The translations under genes and the position numbers were made by a program. The notes under the pieces were generated by a model. The model was not told the origin of the DNA. It made no database searches and worked only from the letters and a program-made list of their open reading frames with translations. Below are positions 17,105 through 54,310 of a DNA stretch of 64,000 nt, piece after piece. The stretch is from Gammaproteobacteria bacterium. GTDB lineage: Bacteria; Pseudomonadota; Gammaproteobacteria; Eutrophobiales; Eutrophobiaceae. Location of the stretch: assembly GCA_965601665.1 (NCBI GenBank), contig OZ271833.1, positions 2,146,607 through 2,210,606 on the forward strand, in the 5' to 3' direction. Within the stretch, counting starts at the first letter, position 1. Each line of letters opens with the position of its first letter.

Positions 17105-18868
17105 ATGATCGAGAATGCCATGCTCGCACAGTCCAACAAGTCGCCTGAAGACGCGGCCCTGAAACAAAAATACCAGGAGCTCGTTACCGAATTTGATGCC
17201 CGTGAACAGGAGTGGAATCGGGACAAGCAAACGCTGTTAAAGTCTGTGCTAAGCCTTACCTTTGTTTATCAAGGCGAGAATGAAGAGCTTGATAAAAAAC
17301 TATTTGATCTAAAAGAAAACCTTAAGCAGTCCCGCGACAAATTGCCGCAAAAGGAAATAGATGCGGCAATCAATTCCGTGCTTGCCAATAAAAAATCGGG
17401 CGATAAAGACCGCTTACGAACGCGGCAGTTAATCGATAATGTCCTGTTACTACTTAAATCAGATCCACGGCTGGTGCAGTTTGCTGACAAAATAGACTCC
17501 CTCGTAGATCAATCACAGGACAATGACATTATTCCAGCATCACAACTAAAGCAGGTGAATGATGTCATAGCAGAAATCAGCCAACAGTTGGCAAGACAAA
17601 AACAAAAGCCCGACAACTATAAAGTATTCCTGAAAAAGCTGGCCAGTAATGACAACGCAGACGCCGAGCTGGCTGCTTTCTGCAAACGCTCGCTGAAGTT
17701 AAATGAAGACAGGGCAATAATGCAATCTATTCACGATTGCATCGATATTATTAAAGACTTACATCACAGCCAGACTGCTACCGAACAAACGAAACTGGTT
17801 GAGGCTGGCATCGCCCATGTTTTAACGCTACTGGACTGGATTACCATTCCTGGTAAATCACAGGAAAAACTGGAAACCCTCAAGGCCCGTCTCGAAGAAC
17901 AACATGAGAGTGACGAGATTGGCAACCTTCTGCGCAGACTTTCACTGACTATCAACAACGCTTTTATGGAACTGCAATCAGAGCTTGATGCGACAGAAGG
18001 CTTCCTGAAAAAAGTCACAAACCAGCTTAATGAAATCACTCTACAGATCGCCGATATCGAAAAACTCGAAAACGAAAGCTTCTCTCAAACAGAGACGCTG
18101 AACGAAGAACTGGATAAGCAAATCAGGTTAATTCAGTCCGGGGTAGATGAGGCCGACAGCATCGACAAGATCAAGGAAGCGATCAATAAGCGTATAGAGA
18201 TCCTGCAAGACAATATGGACAATTTCATAAAAGTCGAACAAACACGTAAACATGTTTCCAACCAGCAGCATCGCGAGCTGGTGGAAAAACTGGGCAACAT
18301 GGAAAAGGAGACCGAGGCGCTCAGGAAAAGTATTGAAGAGGAAAAAAACAAGGCGCTTAACGATGCACTGACGCGCATAGCCAACCGTATGGCTTTTGAT
18401 CAGCGTATCAATACCGAGTTTAAACGGTGGCAACGCTATCGTTCCAGGCTGACGCTGTGCCTGGTTGATATCGATAAATTCAAAGCGGTTAACGATACCT
18501 ATGGTCACAAGGCAGGCGATATCGTGTTACGTACTGTTGCTGAAAAATGCGCGTCGAGAATCCGTCCCAGCGATTTTTTCGCCCGCTATGGCGGCGAAGA
18601 GTTTGCCCTGATTCTGCCGGAAACGGGCATTGATGCGGCCTGCGGCGTGGCAGAGGAGCTGCGCGAAACAATTGCAAAGTGCGCTTTCCAATATAAACAG
18701 GAAGTAGTGCCAATAACCATTTCCTGTGGGCTGGCAGAGTTCAAGGGCAGAGATACAATTGATACGGCATTCCAGAGAGCTGACAAGGCATTATACAAGG
18801 CCAAGGATTCAGGCAGAAACTGTGTTGTTGCTGAGAACCAGCTTAGCCTGGTAAGGGAAGCTGGCTGA
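17105..18868 (+). CDS. Diguanylate cyclase (GGDEF) with a long N-terminal coiled-coil domain
   Basis: C-terminal GGDEF domain with RYGGEEFALILPET and a KAVNDTYGH I-site-like region. About 400 aa of predicted coiled coil precedes it, with no TM segment. Confidence 0.85.
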   Translation: MIENAMLAQSNKSPEDAALKQKYQELVTEFDAREQEWNRDKQTLLKSVLSLTFVYQGENEELDKKLFDLKENLKQSRDKLPQKEIDAAINSVLANKKSGDKDRLRTRQLIDNVLLLLKSDPRLVQFADKIDSLVDQSQDNDIIPASQLKQVNDVIAEISQQLARQKQKPDNYKVFLKKLASNDNADAELAAFCKRSLKLNEDRAIMQSIHDCIDIIKDLHHSQTATEQTKLVEAGIAHVLTLLDWITIPGKSQEKLETLKARLEEQHESDEIGNLLRRLSLTINNAFMELQSELDATEGFLKKVTNQLNEITLQIADIEKLENESFSQTETLNEELDKQIRLIQSGVDEADSIDKIKEAINKRIEILQDNMDNFIKVEQTRKHVSNQQHRELVEKLGNMEKETEALRKSIEEEKNKALNDALTRIANRMAFDQRINTEFKRWQRYRSRLTLCLVDIDKFKAVNDTYGHKAGDIVLRTVAEKCASRIRPSDFFARYGGEEFALILPETGIDAACGVAEELRETIAKCAFQYKQEVVPITISCGLAEFKGRDTIDTAFQRADKALYKAKDSGRNCVVAENQLSLVREAG

Positions 18869-18878
18869 ACAACGGGCA

Positions 18879-18905
18879 ATAAAAAAGGAGCCTTGCGGCT
18901 CCTTT
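18879..18905 (-). terminator. Rho-independent terminator for pqqA-like gene (also weakly for the GGDEF gene)
   Basis: GGAGCC-ttgc-GGCTCC stem, with T6 on the minus strand (A6 on plus at 18881-18886) and TTT on plus. Confidence 0.7.
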
Positions 18906-18931
18906 CAGATAACTACTTTGCGAGAAGGAAG

Positions 18932-19006
18932 TTATTTGTTGTTGATGTACATGGTAACTTCAAAACCAAAACGAATGTCATTGTATTCAGGTGTTTCCCA
19001 TTTCAT
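18932..19006 (-). CDS. pqqA: PqqA-like peptide (coenzyme PQQ precursor-like), 24 aa, not in the supplied ORF track
   Basis: Translation is MKWETPEYNDIRFGFEVTMYINNK, compared with PqqA sequences recalled from memory (approximately [23 protein letters not shown] and [24 protein letters not shown]). The Glu-X3-Tyr pair (EVTMY) is conserved. GGAGGA lies 7 nt upstream of the ATG. Confidence 0.7.
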   Translation of the reverse strand: MKWETPEYNDIRFGFEVTMYINNK

Positions 19007-19051
19007 TGTCGTATCCTCCGGTTGGTTAACTAATGTGGTTATCAATATAAA

Positions 19052-19067
19052 TGCAGTCAGCGTGCCA
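19052..19067 (-). promoter_or_regulatory. Sigma-54 (RpoN) -24/-12 promoter TGGCACG-N4-CTGCA upstream of pqqA-like gene
   Basis: Minus-strand reading is tTGGCACGctgaCTGCAt. GG and GC are separated by exactly 10 nt, with 11 of 12 matches to TGGCACG-N4-TTGCW. Confidence 0.55.
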
Positions 19068-19144
19068 ATTCTGCCAGCAACGGATATACATTATATTTAT
19101 CAATAAGTTACGAATTATTATGTGATAGCAGGGCCTGCGTTATG

Positions 19145-19202
19145 AACCAGAATTGGTTAATCGCAACCAGATCCATTGGTTGTTCGCAACCAGTTCAACC
19201 AG
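19145..19202. promoter_or_regulatory. Array of AACCA/TGGTT dyads, a possible enhancer (UAS) for the sigma-54 promoter and/or terminator structure after the photolyase gene
   Basis: Sequence reads AACCAgaatTGGTTaatcgcAACCAgatccatTGGTTgttcgcAACCAgttcAACCAG. Located 80-135 bp upstream of the -24/-12 element. Confidence 0.4.
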
Positions 19203-27023: not shown

Positions 27024-29189
27024 CTATGCGGGTTGCAGGTTGGCATAGGCGGCGACCAGCCACTTACACCCCGCCTGCTCAAAGTTAACCTGAATCCGCA
27101 TGTGCCCACCACTGCCCTCAAGGTTAAGCACGACACCCTCTCCAAACTTGGCATGCGACACGCGCTGTCCCAGTGATAAACCACTCTTGTCGGTTTCGCT
27201 ACTGATATGCTGACGGCTAAATAAGGACTCAGTCACACTGCCACCAAGACGGATGTCATTAAGCAAACTCGATGGGATCTCGTCGATGAAACGTGATGGT
27301 GTTGGATAGTAATCCGAACCATGCAGGCGTCGGTGTTGGGCGTGGGTCATGGTCAGTCGCTGCTGGGCACGAGTGATGCCGACATAGCAAAGGCGGCGCT
27401 CCTCTTCCAGCTGCACCAGGTCTTCGCTGCTGCGTTGATGGGGAAACAACCCCTCTTCCATGCCAACCAGGAATACATCATTAAACTCCAGTCCCTTGGC
27501 AGAATGCAGCGTCATAAGGTGCACGCAGTCCGAGGCCTCGCTGGCCTGCGTTTCGCCTGATTCCAGTGCGGCATGCGCAAGAAAAGCGGACAAGGCATCC
27601 ATCTCAGCAAGCTCCTCATCATCACCAATCTCGAATTCCTGCGCAGCCGACACCAGTTCTTCCAGGTTTTCAATGCGCGCCTTGCCCTTCTCGCCCTTTT
27701 CTTTCTGGAAGTGTTGGATCAGTCCACTGAGCTTGATGACCTGATCGATGTGCTCGTTCAAAACTGTATCGGCCTGGGATTGCTGCATACGTTTTATCAG
27801 TTGCAGAAATTGCTCCAGCGCATTCAGGGCGCGGGCACTGAGTAATTTATGTTGCACAATATGCTCGGCGGCCTGCCACATCGAACACTGGTCCTGTCTT
27901 GCTACCTGACGTAACTCATCGATCGTGCGATTGCCGATACCTCGAGTTGGCGTATTCACAATACGCTCGAACGAGGCATCGTCGTCCTGGAAGCGGGTAA
28001 GACGCACATAGGCAAGTGCGTCCTTAATCTCTGCCCGTTCGTAGAATCGCATACCACCATATACCCGGTAAGGAATCGTCTCCCGCATTAATGCCTCTTC
28101 AATGACCCGAGACTGCGCGCTGACCCGGTACAGGATTGCATAATCCTTATAGGGTTTGCCTTGCTCTGGCGCTGAACGAATTTGATCAACAACGTAGCGG
28201 GCCTCGTCAGTCTCGTTATACGCCATGTATACCCCGATACGATCGCCATCTTCGCCCTCGGTCCAAAGGTCTTTACCGAGGCGTGCGTTATTATTGGCAA
28301 TCAACTCGTTGGCAGCCTTGAGGATGGTTGCCGTTGATCGATAGTTCTGCTGCAGTTTAAGCAATTGCACGTGCTTGAAATCCTGCTCAAAGGCCTGCAT
28401 GTTTTCCACCCGCGCACCACGCCAGCTATAAATCGACTGGTCATCATCACCAACGGCAAACAGCGTGTTTTTCTCGCCAACCAGCAGTCGCAACCATGCG
28501 TATTGCAACGCGTTGGTATCCTGGAATTCGTCTACCAGTACATGGCCAAAACGTTGCTGGTAATGTTCGCGTATCGATGCATGATCGCGAAACAGTTCGA
28601 ACGTGCGTAGCAACAGTTCAGCAAAATCAACAAGGCCGGAACGCTCACAGCTTTCCTGGTAGGCCTTGTAAATCCGGATCATTTGCGCCGTGGTGACATC
28701 TCCATGGTCATCAATCTTGTCCGGGCGCAGGCCGTCATCTTTCCTCGCGTTAATGAACCACTGCGCCTCACGCGGCGGGTATTGAGACTCGTCCAGTTGC
28801 ATGGATCGCACCACGCGCCGAACTGCGCGAAACTGGTCCTCGCTATCCAGTATCTGGAAGCTTTCCGGAAGGCCGGCCTCCTGCCAGTGTGCACGCAAGA
28901 ACCGATGCGCAAGGCCATGGAAGGTGCCTACCCACATCCCTTTAACTGACTGCCCCAGCAGCTTCTCAATGCGCGCACGCATCTCGGCGGCCGCCTTGTT
29001 GGTAAAAGTGACTGCCAGAATACTGTAAGGCGATGCCTGTCCTGTTTCTATATACCACGCAATGCGATGCACCAGCACCCGCGTTTTACCACTGCCGGCA
29101 CCGGCCAACACCAGCTTATTGCCAGTCTCGGCCGCCACGGCCTCGCGTTGTTCGCTGTTCAGGGAATCAAGAATATGGGATACATCCAT
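27024..29189 (-). CDS. uvrD: DNA helicase II (UvrD/Rep SF1 helicase)
   Basis: Start trimmed to MDVSHILDSLNSEQ. Motifs AGAGSGKT, TFTNKAA and VDEFQDTN are present. Confidence 0.9.
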   Translation of the reverse strand: MDVSHILDSLNSEQREAVAAETGNKLVLAGAGSGKTRVLVHRIAWYIETGQASPYSILAVTFTNKAAAEMRARIEKLLGQSVKGMWVGTFHGLAHRFLRAHWQEAGLPESFQILDSEDQFRAVRRVVRSMQLDESQYPPREAQWFINARKDDGLRPDKIDDHGDVTTAQMIRIYKAYQESCERSGLVDFAELLLRTFELFRDHASIREHYQQRFGHVLVDEFQDTNALQYAWLRLLVGEKNTLFAVGDDDQSIYSWRGARVENMQAFEQDFKHVQLLKLQQNYRSTATILKAANELIANNNARLGKDLWTEGEDGDRIGVYMAYNETDEARYVVDQIRSAPEQGKPYKDYAILYRVSAQSRVIEEALMRETIPYRVYGGMRFYERAEIKDALAYVRLTRFQDDDASFERIVNTPTRGIGNRTIDELRQVARQDQCSMWQAAEHIVQHKLLSARALNALEQFLQLIKRMQQSQADTVLNEHIDQVIKLSGLIQHFQKEKGEKGKARIENLEELVSAAQEFEIGDDEELAEMDALSAFLAHAALESGETQASEASDCVHLMTLHSAKGLEFNDVFLVGMEEGLFPHQRSSEDLVQLEEERRLCYVGITRAQQRLTMTHAQHRRLHGSDYYPTPSRFIDEIPSSLLNDIRLGGSVTESLFSRQHISSETDKSGLSLGQRVSHAKFGEGVVLNLEGSGGHMRIQVNFEQAGCKWLVAAYANLQPA

Positions 29190-29291
29190 GGAACAGATTG
29201 TACGCAAATGTATCTGACTATTAAATTGACACGCACGTTGACAGGCTTGAATGCTAGACTGTCACCTCGACATTACCCACAAACAGGAATT

Positions 29292-30641
29292 ATGGAAGCA
29301 ATTAGTACAACCGGCCTTAATGCCAAACGCGAGGAACTGGTAGCCATTATTGATAGCGTGCTGAAACGCGCTAGTGCACTTGGCGCCACGGCAGCCGAGG
29401 CGGACATTGGCGCAGGTTCAGGACTTACAGCCAATGTCCGCATGGGAGAAATCGACAAACTTGAGTTTGAGCGAGACAAGGGCCTCAGTGTGACGCTTTA
29501 TGTTAACGGTCAGAAAGGCAGCGCCAGCACCTCTGACTTCAGTTCGGCAGCGCTGGAAAAAACAGTAAACGCTGCCCTCAGCATCGCCCGCTATGCCAGC
29601 CATGACAAGTATGCAGGGCTGGTGGACGCCAGCGAAATGGCAGGAGACATACCCAATCTTGACCTGCATCATCCGTGGTCAATTTCGCCTGAACAGGCCA
29701 TTGATATGGCGAAGGAGTGTGAACAGCTCGCTTTTGACAAGGATAAGCGGATTACCAATGCGGATGGCACCGTTGTCAGTACCTATTCAGGTATCAACCT
29801 GTATGGAAACAGTCATGGTTTTATCGACGGCTGGGACTGGTCAGTGCACAGCATCGATTGCACCGTTATCGCTGAAGACGGCAACGGCATGCAGCGTGAT
29901 GGCTGGTACAGCAAGACCCGGGATCCCCGGGACCTGGAAGATATCAAGGCCATCAGTAGTGAAGCAGCCAGGCGCACGATTAATCGACTCGGGTCGCGCA
30001 AGCTGAGCACCCGTCAGGCGCCGGTTATCTTTGAGGCGCCGGTCGCTTCGGGATTGTTCTCCGCGCTGATTTCCGCAATTTCGGGTAACAGCCTGTATCG
30101 TCGGGCCAGTTTCATGCTCGATATGAAGGGTAAACCGGTGTGCGCTGATCACATTAACATCGGGGAACACCCGCATATGCTGAAGGCCATGGGCAGTGCG
30201 CCATTTGATAATGACGGTGTTGCAACGCGTGAACGCCCGATAGTCAGCAATGGTGTGCTACAGGACTATGTCCTTAGCGGCTACTCGGCAAGACGACTCG
30301 GCATGCAGACCACGGCCAATGCCGGCGGTGTGCATAACCTGATGGTTGAACCAGGACCCAATAACCTGCAGCAGATGCTAAAAGACATGGGCACCGGATT
30401 ATTGATCACCGATATGATTGGCTTTGGTGTTAACCAGGTTACCGGTGACTACTCGCGTGGTGCATCCGGCTTCTGGGTCGAAAATGGCGAACTGGCCTAC
30501 CCGGTTGAAGAGATTACTGTCGCTGGCAACCTGAAAGACATGTACATGAACATCGTACAGACAGGAAACGATATCGATACACGAGGTAATTATCGTTGCG
30601 GATCGGTATTGATTGAGAATATGACCATCGCTGGTGAGTAA
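29292..30641 (+). CDS. pmbA: Metalloprotease PmbA (TldE)
   Basis: Start trimmed to MEAISTTGLNAKREELV. TldD/PmbA family across the full length of about 450 aa. Confidence 0.85.
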   Translation: MEAISTTGLNAKREELVAIIDSVLKRASALGATAAEADIGAGSGLTANVRMGEIDKLEFERDKGLSVTLYVNGQKGSASTSDFSSAALEKTVNAALSIARYASHDKYAGLVDASEMAGDIPNLDLHHPWSISPEQAIDMAKECEQLAFDKDKRITNADGTVVSTYSGINLYGNSHGFIDGWDWSVHSIDCTVIAEDGNGMQRDGWYSKTRDPRDLEDIKAISSEAARRTINRLGSRKLSTRQAPVIFEAPVASGLFSALISAISGNSLYRRASFMLDMKGKPVCADHINIGEHPHMLKAMGSAPFDNDGVATRERPIVSNGVLQDYVLSGYSARRLGMQTTANAGGVHNLMVEPGPNNLQQMLKDMGTGLLITDMIGFGVNQVTGDYSRGASGFWVENGELAYPVEEITVAGNLKDMYMNIVQTGNDIDTRGNYRCGSVLIENMTIAGE

Positions 30642-38110: not shown

Positions 38111-39121
38111 ATGAGTTTCAAGGCAACACTGGCCAACCAGGATATATCTTTTGCCATCGAAAACAATGAAACTGTTCTCGAGGCGGCATTACGACAAAAT
38201 ATCAGCTTGCCCTACGGCTGTCGTAATGGCGCCTGCGGCGCCTGTAAGGCAAAGCTGGCAAGTGGCACGGTTCACTACGATAACGGTTTACCGTCGGCCA
38301 TTACTGAACAGGATCAGGCTTGTGGGCAAGCACTATTGTGTTCTGCACGACCGGAAAGCGACCTCGTCATCGAAGCACGAACGGTGGACGCAGCCGGTGA
38401 TATCAGTATACGAAAGTTGCCATGCCGGGTGACCAGTTGCGAAAAGCTCAGCAAGGATGTCATTCGTCTGTTTCTTGAATTACCTAAAACAGAACGATTG
38501 CAATTTCTCGCGGGTCAGTATATCGACATATTAATGAGCGGCGATAAACGGCGCTCGTTTTCAATGGCAAACCCGCCGCATAAGGATCAGCAGATCGAGT
38601 TACATGTCCGCTATTATGATGGCGGTGTGTTTTCGGAGTATGCGTTCAATGATCTACAGGAAAAAGCCCTGTTGCGAATTGAGGGGCCGTTAGGCTCGTT
38701 CACACTTAAGGAAACAGGGCGTCCAATGATAATGGTCGCCGGTGGCACCGGTTTTGCGCCAATCAAGAGCCTGATCGAACACGCGCTTCATGTTGATGAC
38801 AAGCGTGACATATTCCTCTATTGGGGCGTACGCGGCGAAAGTGACCTGTATTTAAACAACATGGCAATAGAGTGGGCGGCACAAAATGAACACATTCATT
38901 ATGTCCCCGTATTGTCAGAGGTCGATAGCGATACGGAATGGTCAGGCAAACAAGGCTTTGTTCACGAGGCAGTGCTTGCAGATTTCAGTGACTTGTCCGG
39001 ATACGATGTCTATGCCTGTGGACCACCGCCCATGATTAACGCGATCGTGGAAACACTACCCGAACAGGGATTGAATAAGGAAAATATCTATTCTGATTCA
39101 TTCGAGTTTGCTACCAGCTAG
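38111..39121 (+). CDS. [2Fe-2S] ferredoxin / FAD / NAD(P)H oxidoreductase (AscD/MmoC-class reductase)
   Basis: Plant-type ferredoxin Cys pattern (CRNGACGACK...C), FAD site RSFSMAN, and NAD site GGTGFAP. Confidence 0.75.
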   Translation: MSFKATLANQDISFAIENNETVLEAALRQNISLPYGCRNGACGACKAKLASGTVHYDNGLPSAITEQDQACGQALLCSARPESDLVIEARTVDAAGDISIRKLPCRVTSCEKLSKDVIRLFLELPKTERLQFLAGQYIDILMSGDKRRSFSMANPPHKDQQIELHVRYYDGGVFSEYAFNDLQEKALLRIEGPLGSFTLKETGRPMIMVAGGTGFAPIKSLIEHALHVDDKRDIFLYWGVRGESDLYLNNMAIEWAAQNEHIHYVPVLSEVDSDTEWSGKQGFVHEAVLADFSDLSGYDVYACGPPPMINAIVETLPEQGLNKENIYSDSFEFATS

Positions 39122-52255: not shown

Positions 52256-54310
52256 TCACAGAAACAAGTATCGAACCGATAAACCGGCATAAATATTCAA
52301 CTCAGGCGCTGGTTCGAAGTAGCGGCTGCCAAACGCGTTTATCCTGACGTTGCCAATATATTCTTCATCAAAAAGATTATTAATACCGAAATAAGGTGTC
52401 AGTTCGACCCCGTCGATAACACCACTATAACCAAGTCGCAAGTTGGAAACACCGTACGGCCTGTTCTGTGCCGTGTTGTCATTATTAACAAAAAAATTGC
52501 TGACGTATTGAAAATCCATACTGGAAAAGAAGCCCGAAGGATGGGTGTAAGACCATTCGGTATAAAAGTTATGATCTGGCAAACCAGGTAACCTGTTGCC
52601 ATCACAACTGGCTACCCCGCACTCTGAGCCCGGAAAACTGTCAAAAGTAAAATCGTTATAAGTGTAGGACATCAAGATACTCAAGCCGGAAACCGGTATG
52701 AAAGAAGCTGTTGCCTCAACGCCTTTCCGGGTTGTGTCAGCATTGGCAAAAGCCGTACGCCCGTCAACATTAATCGTGTTGATGATCTCGTCATCAACAT
52801 CGATGTGGAACAAGGAAAGCTGATAATTTAATCGCGAAGTCGGTGATCCTTTTATGCCAACTTCATAGTTCAGCGCTTTCTGTGCGGAGATATCGGTAAA
52901 ACCACCTGGTGCGACGCCGGTTAACTCGGTAAAGGTTGGTGTTTCGAATACGCTGGAAACGTTAACAAAAGCATTCATTGCCGGGTTAACTTTCCATAAC
53001 AGACCGCCCATAGGGCTGACTTCTTCAAAATTCAATTCCGCTGAATCATCCCCATTGCCAAGAAACTGGTCCTCAACCTCCAGATCTACCTTGTCATAGC
53101 GGATACCGAGTGACAGTTCCAGGCGCTTTGTCAGGTCGGTTTCATTGCGGAAATAAATACCAATTGAATCGCCTTTTTCAAGCTGGTCCAATGCCAGCGC
53201 GCCCTGCGTACCGTTATTATTGGCATAGCGCTGCCTGTCATCTTCCTGCGTATCGATATCAAAACCAATCGTGGTGCGGTTGCTTAACCCAAAGATTTGG
53301 CTCCCAATATTGTACTGAGCACCACCACCAAACTGAAAACGGTCGAACTCTACCCAGCCATTTGGTGGTAAAGGCAACAGGCCCTGAAAGTTTCTTTGTA
53401 GATAATAGTTTCTTAATATCAGTTCCTGGTCAGGTGTAATCTGGCGACGATATGTCAGCCCGAGTTTCTGTTGATCGATATCTTCATTCGAATTCAGGTC
53501 AAGATTTCTATCCCTGGCCTGTCGGCGGTTATCTTCAACACTTGCCTGATCAAGGCCGCCCGGATCCTGCGCCACAGGTGCATCAAAGGCTGTCACTACA
53601 GCAGTAAAATCAGACTTGTTATCGATATCATAAATAAATTTTGAATTGAACTTGGTATTTCTGACGCGGCTGTGCTCGCGATACCCGGAGGTATCGAGAT
53701 GAGATAAATTAAAGAAATAGTTGAGCTTGCCGAGTTCGCCACCGGTCTTGATGTTTCCAATATGAGTCTGGTATTCACCAAGGCTATAGTTGGACTCTAT
53801 ATAAGGAGCAATATAATCACTATTGCCGGTAAAGAAATTCAGGACGCCACCGGAAGAACTGCCATATAAAGATGAAGCAGGTCCCTTCAACACCTCGATA
53901 CGTGTAATTGAATTAAGATCGATATCTTCAATTCCCCCCTGACCATCTACGGTAGTAAGAGGTATACCATCCTGGTATAGCTTTATTCCACGTGTACCGA
54001 AGTTAGCACGCGCACCAAAACCACGGATAGATATTTTCAAACTCTGGGCAAAATTATAGCGGTTTTGTAAAAACAGGCCGGGCAGTTGCACCAGTGTTTC
54101 ATCTATACCCAGTCTTTGTTTACCATTCGTGATATCAACACTATCGACCACGCCAACCGACGCGGGAACGCCGTACAGTGATTTATCAACGCGGGTGGCT
54201 GTGACGGTAATATCTTCCAGGGTCTGTACCTGTGTATCCGCCTTTGCAGGGGGGATTGAAAAGACACTGACAGCAGTTAGAAATAGAATGCTGCGCATAT
54301 TGTTAGACAT
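52256..54310 (-). CDS. TonB-dependent outer-membrane receptor
   Basis: Signal peptide, TonB-box-like DITVTATR, plug and 22-strand barrel, and an aromatic C-terminus. 684 aa. Confidence 0.85.
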   Translation of the reverse strand: MSNNMRSILFLTAVSVFSIPPAKADTQVQTLEDITVTATRVDKSLYGVPASVGVVDSVDITNGKQRLGIDETLVQLPGLFLQNRYNFAQSLKISIRGFGARANFGTRGIKLYQDGIPLTTVDGQGGIEDIDLNSITRIEVLKGPASSLYGSSSGGVLNFFTGNSDYIAPYIESNYSLGEYQTHIGNIKTGGELGKLNYFFNLSHLDTSGYREHSRVRNTKFNSKFIYDIDNKSDFTAVVTAFDAPVAQDPGGLDQASVEDNRRQARDRNLDLNSNEDIDQQKLGLTYRRQITPDQELILRNYYLQRNFQGLLPLPPNGWVEFDRFQFGGGAQYNIGSQIFGLSNRTTIGFDIDTQEDDRQRYANNNGTQGALALDQLEKGDSIGIYFRNETDLTKRLELSLGIRYDKVDLEVEDQFLGNGDDSAELNFEEVSPMGGLLWKVNPAMNAFVNVSSVFETPTFTELTGVAPGGFTDISAQKALNYEVGIKGSPTSRLNYQLSLFHIDVDDEIINTINVDGRTAFANADTTRKGVEATASFIPVSGLSILMSYTYNDFTFDSFPGSECGVASCDGNRLPGLPDHNFYTEWSYTHPSGFFSSMDFQYVSNFFVNNDNTAQNRPYGVSNLRLGYSGVIDGVELTPYFGINNLFDEEYIGNVRINAFGSRYFEPAPELNIYAGLSVRYLFL

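Follow-up and report, generated by a model that had tools for sequence, protein, structure and literature searches.

Stand-alone and supplementary copies of pqqA, the gene for the ribosomal precursor peptide of pyrroloquinoline quinone (PQQ), are well documented: M. extorquens carries pqqA2 and pqqA3, Methylovorus sp. MP688 has five copies and the Methylophilaceae have 3–12 (PMC11317620, PMC4109929). PqqA supply was reported to be rate-determining in Methylovorus MP688; the pqqA copies of methylotrophs differ in how they respond to conditions, and PQQ output can be limited by the amount of PqqA available (PMC11317620, PMC4109929; Ge et al. 2015 as cited there). A mechanism is given neither for the limitation by precursor supply nor for the response of orphan copies to lanthanide conditions (PMC11317620, PMC4109929), and both the regulation of PQQ and the reason for extra pqqA copies are poorly understood. 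Here we analysed a pqqA gene in a stretch of 64,000 nucleotides (hereafter the window; contig OZ271833.1 of assembly GCA_965601665.1, positions 2,146,607 to 2,210,606) from a member of the Eutrophobiaceae (Gammaproteobacteria). An initial annotation of this stretch had described the gene as an orphan and implied that such genes are rare, which does not agree with the literature above; as a stand-alone pqqA, the gene belongs to a class already known and is ordinary within it.

The comparison with related loci points to something new in its control, namely a conserved sigma-54 enhancer module with an associated dedicated two-component regulator of PQQ supply. We consider it probable that the window gene is transcribed as a short monocistronic mRNA under signal-dependent, sigma-54 enhancer-activated control, and that its product feeds a pqq pathway encoded elsewhere. 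In the literature searched on pqqA with sigma-54 (RpoN) or on multiple or orphan copies, no defined sigma-54 promoter, enhancer motif or dedicated regulator was found; in one source (10.1101/2020.07.04.188060), pqqA and sigma-54 appear in unrelated passages.

With all six frames checked, the window contained a single PqqA-like open reading frame (Table 1). Its 24-residue product scored 43.4 bits against PF08042 (cut-off 21.1) and 47.1 bits against the NCBIfam equivalog TIGR02107 (cut-off 20). Because both matches lie above the cut-offs, we classify the peptide, which the initial annotation had called PqqA-like, as a bona fide PqqA. The Glu-X3-Tyr pair (E16, Y20) sits within a peptide of PqqA-typical length (~20–40 aa). 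The positions of these two residues were fixed by the pattern used to search for related loci, and their invariance in those loci is not independent evidence. A GGAG/GAGG motif was found at the position equivalent to the Shine-Dalgarno sequence in related pqqA loci. From the family assignment, conversion of the peptide to PQQ would be its expected function.

Table 1. Features of the pqqA locus in the window, in the direction of transcription
Feature	Coordinates	Strand	Remarks
Distal TGGTT half-site	19197..19201	minus	overlaps last codon and stop (19197–19195) of the photolyase gene; direct-repeat families D1/D4
Enhancer (upstream activating sequence) palindrome 1	19177..19192	no strand	TGGTTGCGAACAACCA read on minus strand; exact TGGTT-N6-AACCA
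Enhancer (upstream activating sequence) palindrome 2	19154..19169	no strand	TGGTTGCGATTAACCA; exact TGGTT-N6-AACCA; 23 bp start-to-start from palindrome 1
Proximal TGGTT half-site	19145..19149	minus	read from sequence, repeat analysis
IHF-like site	19098..19110	minus	TAACTTATTGATA; perfect match to YAANNNNTTGATW; between enhancer and promoter
Sigma-54-type -24/-12 element	19052..19067	minus	TGGCACGCTGACTGCA; GG 19066–19065, GC 19054–19053, GG-N10-GC spacing
Shine-Dalgarno sequence GGAGGA	19014..19019	minus	7 nt before the pqqA ATG
pqqA coding sequence	18932..19006	minus	24 aa + stop; peptide MKWETPEYNDIRFGFEVTMYINNK; Glu16 and Tyr20 are the residues cross-linked by PqqE
Intrinsic terminator	18879..18905	minus	stem AAAGGAGCC / GGCTCCTTT, loop GCAA, T-rich tail

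The reading frame, Shine-Dalgarno sequence, -24/-12 element, dyad array and terminator were all found just as the initial annotation had described them. The -24/-12 element is close to TGGCACG-N4-TTGCW and, at 17.5 out of 18, was the top-scoring site of its kind in the window. A looser score yielded 21 sites, and by our comparison the weight of the element comes from its position and conservation. Upstream of it, a dyad array begins at the photolyase stop codon. Two exact TGGTT-N6-AACCA palindromes were found in the window where 0.08 were expected, and none of 100 shuffled sequences reached two. Both are embedded in a 23-bp direct repeat with half-sites flanking either side, and, measured from first base to first base, they precede the -24 element by 102 and 125 bp. 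Relative to the ATG, the palindromes are at -186 and -163 and the promoter at -61.

The IHF-like site starts 43 nt upstream of the -24 element. Matches with one mismatch occurred at -42 to -54 in L009, L039, L052, L060, L077, L082, L098 and L105 (L numbers denote the loci compared), and IHF-like sites were present in about half of the relatives. The site in the window may function as an IHF site. Transcription would start at about 19042–19040, giving a leader of 35 nt and a predicted transcript of ~160 nt, longer than the ~110 nt that the initial annotation had proposed. The terminator hairpin occupies 18905–18884, has a GC-rich stem of 9–10 bp and runs into TTTATT; a 66-nt stretch around it (18935–18870) folded with -19.2 kcal/mol (z = -3.0). 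It lies 16 nt beyond the stop codon of a convergent GGDEF gene (17105–18868, plus strand). A consensus pattern scanner did not list this terminator, probably because the maximal stem takes up part of the T-run.

Related loci were collected with a degenerate DNA pattern back-translated from the peptide (at least 119 genome loci) and, separately, through a metagenome scan whose query was just the double palindrome and contained nothing of pqqA (at least 120 matches); in both scans, the comparisons rest on loci among the matches listed. Within these, pqqA fell into two subtypes, one ending in ...DLRFGFEVTMYIYNR and the other, to which the window belongs, in ...DIRFGFEVTMYINNK. The first (Methylococcales, Cycloclasticus) is nearly always followed by pqqBCDE and has neither the promoter nor the palindromes. 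The second, INNK-type subtype occurs in mostly uncultured Gammaproteobacteria (Thiotrichales-like metagenome-assembled genomes (MAGs), Methylohalomonas lacus, Porifericomitaceae) and usually stands alone.

The module was counted in 35 dereplicated loci of the window's subtype. All 35 had a -24/-12-type element 55–116 nt before the ATG, with exact GG-N10-GC spacing in 28, so that the element named in the initial annotation is kept in its relatives. Allowing one mismatch, 35/35 loci had one or more palindromes upstream of that element, and a pair 21–23 bp apart was present in 26/35. In more than half of these 26 paired loci the proximal palindrome was 100–103 bp upstream of the -24 element, the remainder falling at 79–136 bp. 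In contrast, only 11/92 other pqqA loci reached the promoter score of the window and 4% had a palindrome. Palindromes were found in 21/21 groups recovered by the peptide pattern alone (the window and 20 genome-scan loci), and the regulatory elements were kept across genomes of 32% to 59% GC, whatever gene lay upstream. Strong terminators followed the stand-alone copies. The operon-heading copies L042, L082 and L112 retained the promoter and had no terminator, as expected because transcription must continue into pqqB or pqqC.

Some leaders of the subtype have further structure. In L018, L031, L034, L044, L098, L107, L131 and L241–L244, mostly loci with an adjacent kinase-regulator pair, the leader is longer and has a conserved pair of hairpins (CACAC…GUGUG, then CCxGG…CCxGG) ahead of UUUUAAC; the 35-nt leader of the window has no hairpins. 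RNAalifold placed eight consensus pairs in the long leaders, three of them with compensatory changes, and the hairpins may act in attenuation or serve as a binding site. Many leaders of the subtype, those without hairpins included, have the short UUUUAAC/GUUAAC motif 15–35 nt upstream of the Shine-Dalgarno sequence; it recurs in L001, L060, L127, L133, L148 and others, and the window has GTTAACC at 19030–19024.

The palindrome-only scan also led to a candidate activator. Among the matches listed were 16 further pqqA loci of the subtype, each with a strong -24/-12 element, and other loci in which palindromes and -24/-12-like elements precede one family of TonB-dependent receptors. These palindrome-bearing receptors adjoin a gene for an NtrC-family response regulator with receiver, sigma-54 AAA+ and Fis helix-turn-helix domains. 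Homologues of this regulator (51–57% identity), together with a membrane kinase (HAMP-HisKA-HATPase), are encoded beside stand-alone pqqA in L001, L019, L034, L098 and L107. Its best NCBIfam matches were the PEP-CTERM regulator, AtoC and NtrC, all under their cut-offs, and the candidate pair is currently annotated merely as 'AtoC/NtrC family'.

The association was also found in the opposite direction. All four loci fetched with diverged regulator proteins as the sole queries (L241–L244) hold a pqqA of the subtype. It lies in the gap before the kinase gene, is transcribed away from the kinase-regulator operon and has both palindromes and a -24/-12 element. The geometry of the window matches that of the regulator-linked pqqA loci and of the receptor loci L245, L240 and L001. 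The co-occurrence evidence for this two-component system as the activator of the pqqA subtype is thus strong. A conserved unit was noted in L241–L244, L034, L098 and L107, in the order YkuD, DUF302, cytochrome b561, [pqqA], kinase, regulator, DUF1244, TonB-ExbD-ExbB. In none of L241–L244 had pqqA been called by the source annotation; gene callers routinely miss these 75-nt genes, so the annotation of marine and sediment Gammaproteobacteria probably understates their PQQ capacity and its regulation.

In the explanation we favour, the locus would be a self-contained transcription unit of ~160 nt for PqqA. We infer that transcription depends on sigma-54: its RNA polymerase would sit on the -24/-12 element, unable to open the promoter alone, and an NtrC-family response regulator would bind both palindromes ~100–125 bp upstream. 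A partner membrane sensor kinase, on receiving its signal, would phosphorylate the regulator into the active assembly, and a bend at the IHF-type site would bring it to the polymerase, with a start near 19041. The strong ribosome-binding site should allow efficient translation, and the hairpin and T-tract would end the transcript right after the 24 codons. The peptide would then be used in trans by PqqD, PqqE, PqqB and PqqC (and a protease) encoded elsewhere in the genome, making the locus a signal-controlled booster of precursor supply.

Several points weigh against this chain of events. The case for the window transcript and peptide is built on sequence comparison, and rpoN, the kinase-regulator pair and pqqBCDE are all absent from the 64 kb, which is why a trans-acting regulator and a downstream pathway are assumed for this organism. 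The link between regulator and palindromes is one of genomic co-occurrence alone. There is also ascertainment bias, in that the peptide pattern fixed many residues, making their invariance partly circular, and the 16 metagenome loci were found via the palindrome itself. The -12 sequence is non-canonical (TGA or TGG, not TGC) in 7/35 relatives. Finally, the sigma-54 contact loop of the pqqA-linked regulators reads GAFTNA or GAFTSA; in alignment A1 these variants were found in the regulators of L001, L019, L098, L107, L165 and L203, with GAFTGA in L226 and L146 alone; the canonical GAFTGA loop is usually sensitive to mutation. A strict GAFTGA motif scan near pqqA gave a false negative, as the regulators there carry these variant loops.

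The strongest of the alternatives, though an unlikely one, is that the sigma-54 enhancer module works as described and the palindromes are bound by another activator, for example a different enhancer-binding protein with a Fis helix-turn-helix domain. The palindrome pair also lies beside genes unrelated to pqqA. In the metagenome loci L224, L178, L187 and L237, double palindromes and a strong -24/-12 element precede genes for a hydrogenase-4 subunit B-like (hyf-like), a YfdX-family, a type IV pilin-like and a Gly/Tyr-rich small protein, which suggests that the half-site is common to several sigma-54 activators; the pair may thus serve more than one regulator. In L227, L229 and L233, a double palindrome lies between two divergent genes, one for a permease of CitMHS/ArsB type (448 aa) and the other for a membrane protein with DUF6394 (136 aa), with good GG-N10-GC elements facing both; these two genes could likewise belong to the regulon or respond to a related regulator. 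Moreover, the regulator was absent from the window and from the examined stretches of its relatives L060, L119 and L234. Against another activator stand the four regulator-fetched loci, every one of them with pqqA and palindromes, and the exact palindrome in the intergenic region shared by pqqA and the kinase-regulator pair in L019, L034 and L098 (the upstream sites of L107 carry one mismatch). Palindromes also occupy the regulator/receptor intergenic regions of two cultured Methylophilaceae, and the DNA-recognition helix is nearly invariant across pqqA-linked and receptor-linked regulators.

One other set of matches from the metagenome scan was set aside. About 55 of the at least 120 double-palindrome matches were one unrelated, near-identical sequence of the form TGGTTAAGTCTAACCAC(N5-6)GTGGTTAAAGTTAACCA (for example L126:3026–3063, among L120–L239), found on many contigs and mostly in human gut metagenomes. 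It is not a tRNA and is not accompanied by a sigma-54 element; it probably represents an element conserved in a single abundant taxon and unrelated to pqqA.

The fate of the peptide allows a second alternative. The initial annotation had left two possibilities, a remote precursor for a distant pqq operon or a PqqA-like peptide made for another purpose. It had also reported that no pqqB, pqqC, pqqD or pqqE is present in the 64 kb, and a tblastn search (E ≤ 1e-3) with PqqB, PqqC, PqqD and PqqE verified from a canonical Methylobacter operon likewise found none in the window. If the rest of the genome also lacked pqqBCDE, the peptide could be the substrate of another maturase, a signal or a shared good, and most loci of the subtype are indeed stand-alone with their own sensory two-component system. 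We give little credence to this reading, since the PqqA score is at equivalog level and no alternative radical-SAM or other maturase gene lies near the window pqqA. Furthermore, a pqqA of this subtype and promoter type stands at the head of pqqBCDE in L042 and L082 and of pqqCDE in L112, and a single MAG carries both the operon-linked pqqABCDE of L082 and the stand-alone pqqA of L098. Extra pqqA copies that feed a single pqqBCDE set are the documented norm (PMC4109929). Of the two possibilities, the remote precursor is thus favoured over the peptide for another purpose.

Less credible still is constitutive expression, whether a sigma-70 promoter drives it or transcription runs on from the photolyase gene, with the -24/-12 match and the dyads non-functional in this genome. 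TGGCAC-N6-TGC was found twice in the window against 1.21 expected, so the -24/-12 match alone is within chance; the second match (38743–38757, plus strand) lies inside a ferredoxin-reductase-type open reading frame (38111–39121), has no palindromes and is most likely a chance occurrence. A weak sigma-70-like site (9/12) is present at 19146–19117 and no terminator was found between the photolyase gene and pqqA, so that some read-through into pqqA is possible. However, sigma-70-like matches in the region were at chance level (2 found, 1.6 expected), whereas the palindrome pair is far beyond it, and the combination of -24/-12 element and palindromes in 35/35 loci, behind any upstream gene and with constrained spacing, argues against non-functional elements.

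General nitrogen control by NtrC, or control by another global RpoN-linked stress regulator, is very improbable, although the initial annotation had considered nitrogen- or stress-type control and sigma-54 promoters are classically tied to nitrogen. The associated regulator does belong to the NtrC family, but it scored 344 bits against the 559-bit NtrC cut-off, and its partner is a membrane HAMP kinase, unlike the cytoplasmic NtrB. The NtrC site is TGCACC-N5-GGTGCA, which TGGTT-N6-AACCA does not resemble. The dyads co-occur instead with the dedicated kinase-regulator pair, and beside the regulator pqqA, a TonB-dependent receptor gene and TonB-ExbBD recur, whereas nitrogen genes do not. A decaying remnant of a former pqq operon, finally, is strongly disfavoured: the gene is set apart from any pqqBCDE, yet its start codon, ribosome-binding site, frame and terminator are intact, its orthologues differ by synonymous changes only, its regulatory elements are conserved in genomes of widely differing GC content and it is duplicated in tandem in several relatives.

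Sigma-54 enhancer control of a working PQQ precursor gene, which remains our preferred explanation, is also in line with the history of the locus in its nearest relatives. The closest among the loci listed, the metagenomic contig L234, is fully syntenic with the window at 85% nucleotide identity over 7.6 kb, has kept every element and differs in the peptide by N9S. L060 has the photolyase gene, two tandem pqqA copies and DsbA, and lacks the GGDEF gene; L119 has pqqA between purK and the GGDEF gene and lacks the photolyase gene. Across L060, L119 and L234, the pqqA slot is thus conserved while its neighbours vary. The initial annotation had called the placement next to a photolyase gene unusual, but as this adjacency is lost in the syntenic L119 it is incidental. 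The peptide is identical in L060 (both copies), L119 and L019, with 3–6 nucleotide changes that are all synonymous, and the flanking proteins of L060 and L119 are 56–76% identical to those of the window; this pattern indicates that selection acts on the peptide. Tandem pqqA pairs occur in L060, L127, L139, L150 and L190, with the copies ~35–50 nt apart behind one promoter and a terminator after the second, which is consistent with selection for a higher precursor dosage.

The genes around pqqA in the window are housekeeping genes, in the order M48 peptidase, EngB, cytochrome c4, DsbA, convergent GGDEF cyclase, pqqA, photolyase (PF00875 and PF03441; upstream on the same strand) and purK/purE, with UvrD, TldD, MoxR, phosphoribulokinase, hemCDXY, gshB, pyrBC and pilT-like ATPases farther off. 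No sigma-54 activator was found within the 64 kb, and no Rfam family reached its gathering threshold anywhere in the window. A TldD-family metallopeptidase gene (29067–30641, plus strand), a common housekeeping gene, lies ~10 kb from pqqA; tldD reportedly replaces the pqqF protease in Gluconobacter.

The receptors that share the palindromes led us to consider a link to lanthanides. In Methylobacillus flagellatus, the sigma-54 regulator Mfla_1254 is encoded behind the lanthanide-uptake receptor Mfla_1253 and in the same direction; lanthanum induces both, and the authors described sigma-54 regulators as new to the lanthanide response (PMC9988556). This paper was the only source for a connection between sigma-54 and lanthanides in the literature searched, and it reports neither a binding site nor a link to pqqA. 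The receptor family is spread Methylophilaceae-wide. In Methylobacillus gramineus (L245), the receptor gene is followed by those for the regulator and PurT; the palindromes lie at -193 and -169, and a -24/-12-like element is located at -81. In Methylotenera oryzisoli (L240), receptor and regulator are divergent, with three to four palindromes and GG-N10-GC elements toward both genes. These two loci and metagenomic Methylophilaceae loci share with Mfla_1253/1254 the receptor-regulator pair, and their palindromes and -24/-12-like elements stand at the distances seen in pqqA loci; the Methylophilaceae regulator shares 52–60% identity, and its recognition helix, with the pqqA-linked regulators. 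In contrast to the pqqA loci, its target is a receptor and it has no adjacent kinase. The putative orthology of the regulator family to Mfla_1254 is at the level of synteny within the genus (receptor, regulator and purT in M. gramineus), not of the M. flagellatus sequence itself. In L001 (Thiotrichales), pqqA, kinase, regulator and receptor form one cluster, the receptor having its own palindromes and promoter.

A family of NtrC-type regulators that recognises TGGTT-N6-AACCA would, on this reading, switch on a TonB-dependent lanthanide receptor in the Methylophilaceae (the Mfla_1253/1254 pair) and, in mostly uncultured Gammaproteobacteria, PQQ precursor genes, apparently together with the whole pqq operon in L082. 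Several alphaproteobacterial methylotrophs have pqqA copies that respond to lanthanides, though not always in the same direction. The lanthanide link of the pqqA module is a coherent hypothesis, not a result, and we put forward only tentatively, as the less likely case, that the window pqqA belongs to a sigma-54 regulon that provides lanthanide-dependent (XoxF-type) alcohol dehydrogenases with their two cofactors. If this holds, a defined enhancer motif and a defined sensor kinase would link the synthesis of PQQ to the sensing or uptake of lanthanides, the 'lanthanide switch' would gain a sigma-54 branch with a known DNA target, and orphan pqqA copies would gain a clear role.

The co-regulated receptors were not PqqU, scoring 88–127 bits against NF041535 (cut-off 1200), and had no match in the Protein Data Bank at E ≤ 1e-10. 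The window also encodes a TonB-dependent receptor (52259–54310, minus strand) that is 45–47% identical to receptors beside pqqA in L001 and L005. Palindromes and a sigma-54 element are present at the L001 receptor and absent at those of the window and L005; lacking a palindrome and a good -24/-12 element, the window receptor was rejected as a member of the module.

Compared with the systems described so far, the window gene is closest to the orphan pqqA copies of methylotrophs, with which it shares a short gene located apart from pqqBCDE, presumably the same pathway and, in its relatives, tandem duplications; its subtype differs in occurring in mostly uncultured Gammaproteobacteria. With the pqqA of canonical pqqABCDE(F) operons (Methylococcales L054, L022) it has in common the family, the Glu-X3-Tyr core and the near-identical centre …RFGFEVTMYI…. 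There, however, pqqB follows after ~60–300 nt and the -24/-12 element and palindromes are mostly missing, whereas the window copy ends in its own terminator. The regulatory region, for its part, resembles the well-established promoters glnAp2 (NtrC) and nifH (NifA, IHF) in the GG-N10-GC element, the tandem dyad sites ~100–130 bp upstream and the IHF-type site between them, but it has another half-site, another candidate regulator and a 75-nt peptide gene as its sole cistron. With the TGGTT-N6-AACCA motif, the sigma-54 promoter, the candidate kinase-regulator pair and the plausible tie to the sigma-54 regulators in the lanthanide response of Methylobacillus, this locus and its relatives offer a concrete possible mechanism for the regulation of PqqA supply.

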